This document shows, piece after piece, positions 46,166 to 47,942 of a DNA stretch of 64,000 bases (positions are counted from its first letter, which is position 1; each line of letters opens with the position of its first letter). This DNA comes from Eledone cirrhosa. Taxonomy: Eukaryota. The notes under the pieces are model-generated. The model saw nothing but the letters and a program-made list of their open reading frames with translations. It was not told where the DNA came from and searched no databases. The position numbers and the translations under genes are program-made. The stretch covers positions 199,764,001 through 199,828,000 of the forward strand of contig OZ024742.1 in assembly GCA_964016885.1 (NCBI GenBank). The letters run 5' to 3'.

Positions 46166-47125
46166 CACAATATAAGACCGAGGATATCTGGAAATGTTGA
46201 TGGAACTAGGAACTTTACTGTTACAAACTACATATAAAGATATGATAAGGAAATACAGAAAATACTAAAGATGAATCTAGAACGCAGTGGCCACTTCAAA
46301 AACTTATTTAAAAGGTTCTTCCGGCGGCGTTAACATTTGCACAGGTTGATTACACCGTATACTATCTTATTTCAAATCGAAAGACACTCACTTGTTGGTC
46401 CCTGTTTCTATGTTATGCTGTATTTCATGCATCTTTCAGGCGGCTTGTTCTAACCCGTCAAGCAACCTGGGCTCAATGTTATGCGATACCATTGCATTTC
46501 CCAGTGGTTGGCTGAAGTAAAAGATGGATGCTTTTGTTCATTCGTCCCATGAATTTTTAACTTTTTCATGAACAACTTTGCCATATATATATATATATAT
46601 ATATATATATATATATATATATATATATATATATATATATATATATATATATATATATATATATATATATATATATATATATATATATATATATATATAT
46701 ATATATATATATATATATATATATATATATATATATATATATATATATATATATATATATATATATATATATATATATATATATATATATATATATATAT
46801 ATATATATATATATATATATATATATATATATATGTGTGTCCGCATGTATCTGTGTGTTTCTAAATATATTGTTCATAACTCCCTCTGGTCGAGTAATCT
46901 TTGAAGTGTGGTGACTGCTGGAAAGCTGCCATTACTCATACTTCTCGCCTCCTTCTACGGCTTCGATATAAATACCCCCTCCGCCTCCGTGGTATTTTCT
47001 TCGGGGTTATAAGAGGCTTAGCTCTGTTTCTCGACCGTTATATCGCGTGACTATCTCCCCCTCCACCTTTTGGGATTCTTTCTCACGTCATGTAGACGCG
47101 TTCTTGAAGCTAGTAAAATGAGGTA

Positions 47126-47215
47126 TCCTCTTGATAAGTCGGCAGACCTCGCAAAGACTCTATATCATTATGATGTATTGTTTTTGTTTATGCCACGAAA
47201 CTACGTAGTCGAGGA
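47126..47215 (+). ncRNA. Hammerhead, U3-A8 variant with extended stem II (family I, copy 1)
   Basis: TCCTC-TTGATAA-GTCGGCA..TGCCAC-GAAA-CTACGTAG-TC-GAGGA. GUC cleavage predicted after 47210. Confidence 0.85.
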
Positions 47216-47718
47216 ATCTAGGAGCAGTTTAGGTATGATACATTTTATTACTAATTATATCTAAATGTTTCTTCTCTCTTCATAATGTATTTTTAACTCT
47301 GATACTGGTTCAGTCTGATTCAACCGGATTGGTCTGTCCCAGTTATTCATTGAGCAACACCGGTAAGGTTGGCACCATTAACTCACGGTTGGGTGTGGAT
47401 GCATTCATGTATATGTGTGTGTCCGCATGTATCTGTGTGTTTCTAAATATATTGTTCATAACTCCCTCTGGTCGAGTAATCTTTGAAGTGTGGTGACTGC
47501 TGGAAAGCTGCCATTACTCATACTTCTCGCCTCCTTCACCACCTCTTCTACGGCTTCGATATAAATACCCCCTCCGCCTCCGTGGTATTTTCTTCGGGGT
47601 TATAAGAGGCTTGGCTCTGTTTCTCGACCGTTATATCGCGTGACTATCTCCCCCTCCGCCTTTTGGGATTCTTTCTCACGTCATGTAGACGCGTTTTTGA
47701 AGCTAGTAAAATGAGGTA

Positions 47719-47800
47719 TCCTCTTGATAAGTCGGCAGACCTCGCAAAGACATTATATTGTATTGTTTTTGTTTATGCCACGAAACTACGTAGTCGAGGA
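47719..47800 (+). ncRNA. Hammerhead (family I, copy 2)
   Basis: Same motif with a shorter stem II loop. GUC cleavage predicted after 47795. Confidence 0.85.
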
Positions 47801-47942
47801 ATCTAGGAGCAGTTTAGGTATGATACATTTTATTACTAATTATATCTAAATGTTTCTTCTCTCTTCATAATGTATATATATATATATATTTATATATATA
47901 TATATATGTATATATATGTATATATATATATATATATATATT

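Follow-up and report, generated by a model that had tools for sequence, protein, structure and literature searches.

We conclude that a protein-free hammerhead unit of ~590 nt, found in tandem in the window (the whole stretch of 64,000 nucleotides analysed here), is probably a non-LTR retrozyme, its RNA being copied into (TA)n by the reverse transcriptase of a Penelope-like element (PLE). The original prediction for this locus was of an ORF-less hammerhead retrozyme that targets (TA)n and uses PLE machinery, and dispersed tandem arrays, (TA)n flanks and PLE-type ends all fit that description. The element class, the animal retrozymes, is already known, and the family is a new member of it. The suggestion that the family is undescribed holds for print, in that our search of openly available main texts gave no description of it; over the same literature we found no description of two-site, two-armed retrozyme insertions.

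The window locus (Table 1) consists, in the assembly sequence, of 1.8 head-to-tail copies of one unit with a truncated 5' end. The two near-identical direct repeats from which the prediction started, copy 1 (~46835-47289) and copy 2 (~47417-47874), show 95% column identity in a pairwise alignment, with gaps for 11 nt missing from copy 1 and 8 nt missing from copy 2, and they do lie inside a (TA)n array. What had been read as a unique spacer of ~120 bp between them, on the other hand, is part of the unit: 47290-47416 has ~1,926 candidate places in the genome, the best 40 of these at ≥98%. The repeat-spacer-repeat appearance arises because the first copy is 5'-truncated; its 5' junction falls within the TATATGTG stretch, as does that of locus L004. 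A unit of 585 nt is correct as the spacing of the two GUC sites here (47210, 47795), since copy 2 carries the 8-nt deletion, and is not the length of the family unit, which is 587–595 nt. No recognisable ORF had been seen, and in two natural arrays the longest ATG-started frame is indeed 75 aa and the longest stop-free frame 86 aa. No tRNA was found in 45000-50000, and a candidate promoter at TATAAATA (~46967) was rejected, as TATAAATA is not kept in 591-nt copies.

Table 1. Features of the window locus and of related elements; positions refer to the window unless a locus is named.
Feature	Position	Strand	Basis or remark
(TA)n target microsatellite, left part	46583..46834	no strand	sequence
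First unit, 5'-truncated	46835..47289	+	alignment; 5' junction in internal target-like TATATGTG stretch
Hammerhead 1, type I, predicted	47120..47215	+	cut predicted after C47210
Hammerhead 1, predicted pseudoknot strand	47120-47124	+	
Hammerhead 1, helix I	47126-47130/47211-47215	+	
Hammerhead 1, U3-A8 core	47131-47137	+	
Hammerhead 1, GAAA	47197-47200	+	between helix II and palindromic helix III
Predicted hairpin, conserved, directly 5' of end site A	47228..47265 (limits approximate)	+	folding
Internal copy of site A (equivalent of 47874)	47289	+	
Complete unit, 585 nt at window locus	47290..47874	+	contains former 'spacer' 47290-47416
Long G-U-rich predicted hairpin, conserved, directly 5' of end site B	47380..47444 (limits approximate)	+	
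End site B, alternative fixed 3' end in other copies	47452..47456	+	unused at window locus
Hammerhead 2, core intact, helix II hairpin short by 8 nt	47713..47800	+	cut predicted after C47795
End site A, 3' end of window insertion	47861..47874	+	inferred RT start
(TA)n target microsatellite, right part	47875..47941 (run from ~47873)	no strand	sequence
C3-G8 hammerhead-like core	48160-48187	minus	pattern match
C3-G8 hammerhead-like core	48323-48350	plus	pattern match
Long open PLE frame, 938 aa	L131 4309-7122	minus	ORF
Long open PLE frame, 1,096 aa	L133 1775-5062		ORF, RT match only

As predicted, each repeat contains a complete type I hammerhead (TCCTC-TTGATAA...GAAA-CTACGTAG-TC-GAGGA, with C17 at 47210 and 47795). 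Its core, UUGAUAA, has U3-A8 replacing C3-G8, a covariation known from the hammerheads of Schistosoma PLEs (PMC4209133), and a U3-A8 hammerhead variant is reported to be active in vitro (PMC3088659). Helix II holds an insertion in the form of a ~50-nt hairpin. Folding predicts a compatible structure, with three helices and an open core, no more than 1.1 kcal/mol above the minimum, and an invariant GAGGU upstream of helix I could pair with ACCUC of loop II in a predicted pseudoknot of a type reported to accelerate other hammerheads. The helix III palindrome is predicted to form a duplex at -12.9 kcal/mol and has no predicted hairpin fold alone. At gathering score Rfam matched nothing in the window, and a relaxed threshold of E≤10 over 46500-48600 still gave no hammerhead, which we attribute to the helix II insertion and the U3-A8 core. 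Across subfamilies, all 54 hammerhead positions are identical in five of seven copies, and 52 and 51 of them in the other two, as against 74–78% elsewhere, ~22 of the 54 having lain in the search word. The helices are nearly invariant, and two-sided changes were seen in 0 of 35 helix pairs; covariation does not exceed that of shuffles. (TA)n is joined exactly at the cut site in 8 places, compared with 0–4 at six control positions without microhomology (one further control, with 14 places, owes most of its count to T microhomology and makes no fair comparison with the cut site); this excess hints weakly at the copying of some cut RNA. Among Xenopus retrozyme dimers, eight of nine are reported not to have cut in vitro.

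The family is abundant. A 24-nt word from the hammerhead has 7,444 exact matches in the 3.0-Gb assembly and its reversed control has none, so the count is not due to chance; the full hammerhead pattern occurs 6,800 times and its control 0 times. Exact junctions of site A with (TA)n number 2,468 genome-wide, which suggests, by our own estimate, ~3,000–4,000 insertions. The loci examined comprise 49 found via the hammerhead word (from the first 100 matches on one contig, C1), 23 distinct ones found via the spacer, 29–30 of a ~76%-identical subfamily and 19 additional ones. Throughout the 49 and the 23, the arms, as we call the runs of head-to-tail units that make up an insertion, are repeats of one unit, and they reach 4.9 units. 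Among 63 full monomers, 60 measure 587–595 nt (full range 573–595 nt), and the subfamily preserves both the unit length and the two end sites described below. Folded as a circle, the sense strand has z-scores of -3.9 to -5.9, the antisense strand of +1.6 to -1.7 (four copies, 40 shuffles each). A 621-nt contig in a run labelled as another organism (run X6, record 21) covers one whole unit at ~93% identity; going by this sequence, the family may extend to relatives.

The ends of the insertions are highly regular on one side. Of 77 arm 3' ends at the 49 hammerhead-selected loci, 37 lie at site A (47874 = 47289), 35 at site B (~47453) and 5 elsewhere, the two fixed sites being ~165 nt apart, while the 5' ends at these loci are scattered along the unit. 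Loose (TA)n ends at 47289/47290 and 47452 are seen in contigs of four sequencing runs, which are of unrecorded type and possibly include the source sample. Roughly half of the loci contain two arms joined 5' to 5', and such inverted pairs have one A and one B end in 22/26, 10/12, 4/4 and 16/21 cases in four samples, B+B never occurring. With 7 pairs that have an off-site end left out, one site per arm is thus used in 52 of 56 inverted pairs (one insertion, L128, being counted twice), where independent choice would give about half; the remaining four are A+A. Each of the two sites lies directly 3' of a long predicted hairpin that is present in both subfamilies, and 7 of 155 consensus pairs have two-sided changes. 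The PLE-type ends comprise two fixed 3' sites, a tail at one end of inverted copies and 5' truncation. One site per arm matches the PLE 'tail', described as present at one end only (PMC8557442), as well as the two RT starts reported in vitro (PMC11167929). Some two-armed copies have further peculiarities. The same insertion at L128 is present twice, 2.55 kb apart, a local duplication after insertion; at the arm junction of L029/L030 (~1313-1500, 1632-1819) there are short alternating inverted pieces, as if the polymerase had folded back repeatedly; and in L111, L114 and L124 the 5' ends of both arms fall at an identical unit position (292, 262 and 96, respectively), giving an exactly symmetric junction.

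Which form of the RNA is copied can be addressed from the units themselves. Measured downstream from the hammerhead cut, site A lies at 79 nt and site B at ~245 nt, and copies pass through the cut site; a linear cut monomer is thus not the usual template. Between a circle and an uncut multimer, we lean slightly to the circle. Units are 99.7% identical within loci and 96.3% between them. In 26 of 26 comparisons the two arms of one locus are closer than the median outside arm, and in 9 of these no outside arm is as close. Array by array the signal is less uniform: units lie closer to one another than to any other sampled locus in only nine arrays out of 12, and another locus is closer in the remaining three. 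In seven of 12 arrays, every unit carries variants that were seen at none of the other sampled loci; in L119, for example, six units lie within 2 differences of each other and have 4 variants found in no other sampled locus. The monomers compared are 63 of ~7,000 units (~1%).

The strongest competing account is a PLE-driven element whose template is an uncut linear multimer transcribed from existing arrays, with a hammerhead that is weak or has another role and with no circle. It is a sub-case of the best explanation, so its probability shares part of that given to the retrozyme as a whole; we regard it as possible, on the doubtful side. First of all, insertion by the Anolis PLE in vitro is reported to be unimpaired by hammerhead mutants, cutting being dispensable and the main template uncut RNA (PMC11167929). 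Second, one variant in L102 is common to two adjacent units of four, which counts against a single unchanging circle, as such a circle leaves this sharing unexplained. Third, a homogeneous source array would likewise yield near-identical daughter units, and the sample of units is small. On the other hand, 5' truncation should shrink uncut arrays over generations, yet arms reach nearly five units; the locus-specific variants in seven arrays and the weak excess of 5' junctions precisely at the cut site also speak against it, as do the circles reported to be made by the retrozymes of coral, mussel and axolotl.

For the retrozyme with a circular template, the cycle would run as follows. A tandem copy would be transcribed from the + strand and the hammerheads would cut, possibly once paired into a dimer by way of the helix III palindrome, after which the monomer would likely be ligated to a circle. 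A PLE protein, probably a dimer, would bind both long hairpins and nick (TA)n, and cDNA would start at the TA-like bases directly 3' of each hairpin, that is, at sites A and B. RT would then proceed back across the hammerhead junction for up to ~5 units. One cDNA would give a simple insertion, such as that in the window, and two would give back-to-back arms, one per site. A more specific version, which we put forward tentatively and rate a little short of an even chance, is that one ~590-nt RNA circle offers its two hairpins as docking sites for the subunits of a PLE dimer, each of which primes one nicked (TA)n strand and copies round. If so, each two-armed insertion would be the record of one circle unrolled twice over; such a scheme would provide the mechanism so far missing between retrozyme circles and PLE enzymes and would explain both the PLE 'tail' and the inverted structure. 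The route by which animal retrozymes return to genomes, and an origin of PLE tandems from circular templates, have been matters of proposal since 2014 (PMC4209133). A young and abundant family gives exact predictions here, namely two RT start nucleotides, each by a hairpin and one per strand, and since this genome also has long PLE ORFs and an in vitro assay for a PLE has been published (PMC11167929), a circular and a linear template can be directly compared.

The insertion ends are PLE-like, yet the element is not an autonomous PLE, because it contains no RT plus GIY-YIG ORF. The genome has 10,597 GIY-YIG candidates, with RT plus GIY-YIG ORFs of up to 938 aa and a frame of 1,096 aa with an RT match only. 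Most RT plus GIY-YIG frames have a Cys linker resembling that described for Neptune, the clade being assigned from the linker and not from a tree. At least seven PLE families terminate in (TA)n, and in five of these the ends fall at two sites ~35–66 nt apart; inverted coding PLE copies use one each of their own two end sites before (TA)n in ten of ten cases. Three Neptune-like families combine (TA)n ends with hammerhead-like motifs that have the U3-A8 core. Compared by blastn and profile with 50 GIY-YIG loci and 30 further PLE loci, 80 loci as against the 10,597 candidates, the retrozyme unit had no sequence in common with a PLE; strong matches in the helper search were rejected, as they are nearby retrozyme copies.

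Two leads to a helper stand out. One is the young L131 family, whose hammerhead-like motif is of the U3-A8 type and whose second end reads TTTCTAA before (TA)n, like site B. In L163, of the older subfamily, a retrozyme arm meets the 3' coding part of an L141-family element head-to-head, with no TA between them; it is the sole head-to-head join and the only one of 64 non-inverted arms to adjoin PLE coding sequence, which lies in the opposite orientation. This hybrid suggests that two arms can derive from two different RNAs. In L181 at ~1560-6200 (L163), the PLE 3' part is directly followed by a second PLE, broken and from a different family, which has a hammerhead-like motif of its own. The leads from L131 and from L163/L141 point in different directions, that from L163 being complicated by the second PLE. 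Other candidate PLE hybrids were rejected: the flanks in L118 and L155 are another repeat, L093 has, next to the element, a small PLE insertion that is inverted and complete, and L012 and L208 are insertions into the TA tail of a PLE.

These comparisons bear on a second alternative, in which an autonomous PLE outside the sample would have the unit as its pseudo-LTR and the loci would be truncated insertions of that PLE. All end features are PLE-like, and only 80 loci were set against the ~10,600 GIY-YIG candidates. However, what lies upstream of each unit in the arrays is another unit and never an ORF, and the single arm beside PLE coding sequence has it in opposite orientation, so we consider this reading unlikely. 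The same observations, made at 49 and 23 loci for the unit repeats, answer the possibility raised with the original prediction that the spacer is merely the 3' UTR of a long coding PLE, which it is not. Finally, a satellite arising at the DNA level, or a TRIM (miniature LTR element), with a hammerhead by chance is highly improbable: the window locus alone does resemble two terminal repeats flanking a short internal part, but copies are dispersed and often inverted, with fixed 3' and variable 5' ends, the 'internal part' repeats along with the unit, and folding is strand-specific. The TRIM/LTR reading was rejected because the ends of the sampled copies contradict it: these copies show no LTR/PBS/PPT layout (PBS and PPT were judged by eye), and what look like terminal repeats are units in tandem whose 5' ends vary.

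Several other features of the window deserve mention. Directly right of the TA run, 47942-48085 resembles the end of another TA-associated repeat, which is also found beside L028, L147 and L181. It is followed at 48089-48421 by a near-perfect 164-bp inverted repeat with a C3-G8 hammerhead-like core in each arm, probably a two-armed insertion of another PLE-type family to judge from its sequence; the same core occurs at 14188, 15372 and 24167. In positions 1-64000, the hammerhead core pattern has 21 matches where 2.3 are expected, and cores on opposite strands are paired at 13622/13686, 52545/52646 and 57822/58000. By these pattern matches, the window is dense in putative hammerhead-bearing PLE-type ends. 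Between 36000 and 42000 the GC content is 48–55%, compared with ~35% around it, with CAG/CAA repeats at 36564-36705, and this part is possibly a coding element.

Among known systems, the closest are the animal non-LTR retrozymes (Cervera and de la Pena 2020, PMC7229834; Li, Clavereau and Pollet 2026, 10.64898/2026.07.22.740005). As far as these are characterised in the two accounts, the family has every sequence feature by which they are defined: ORF-less tandem units with one type I hammerhead each, GC below 50%, a highly paired fold, thousands of copies and coexistence with PLEs. Its unit of ~590 nt is longer than the ~170–400 nt given in PMC7229834 and falls in the 51–972 bp range of 10.64898/2026.07.22.740005. 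It differs in its U3-A8 core and long helix II hairpin, and its circular RNA is a prediction. The words 'microsatellite' and 'inverted' do not appear in the main text of PMC7229834, and insertion ends are not described in the available text of 10.64898/2026.07.22.740005.

With the endonuclease-bearing PLEs (Neptune, Poseidon, Hydra; Craig et al. 2021, PMC8557442; Cervera and de la Pena 2014, PMC4209133), as these papers present them, the family shares 5' truncation, partial tandems, an inverted 5' copy, the single-end tail, a microsatellite bias and a hammerhead with palindromic helix III; the U3-A8 form is common to the family and the Schistosoma PLEs (PMC4209133). It differs from them in having no ORF and no detectable sequence match to the sampled PLEs, and its tail of ~165 nt compares with 30–40 nt in published PLEs and 35–66 nt in those of this genome. 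The nearest biochemical parallel is the Anolis Poseidon PAc in vitro (Frangieh et al. 2024, PMC11167929), for which RT is likewise reported to start at two internal sites, close to a stem-loop located downstream of the hammerhead, with AT-rich targets; in that system both strands are nicked and extended and a dimer is predicted. PAc, however, is autonomous and its start sites are described as having no target homology, whereas the retrozyme has non-coding RNA and TA-like bases at both of its sites.
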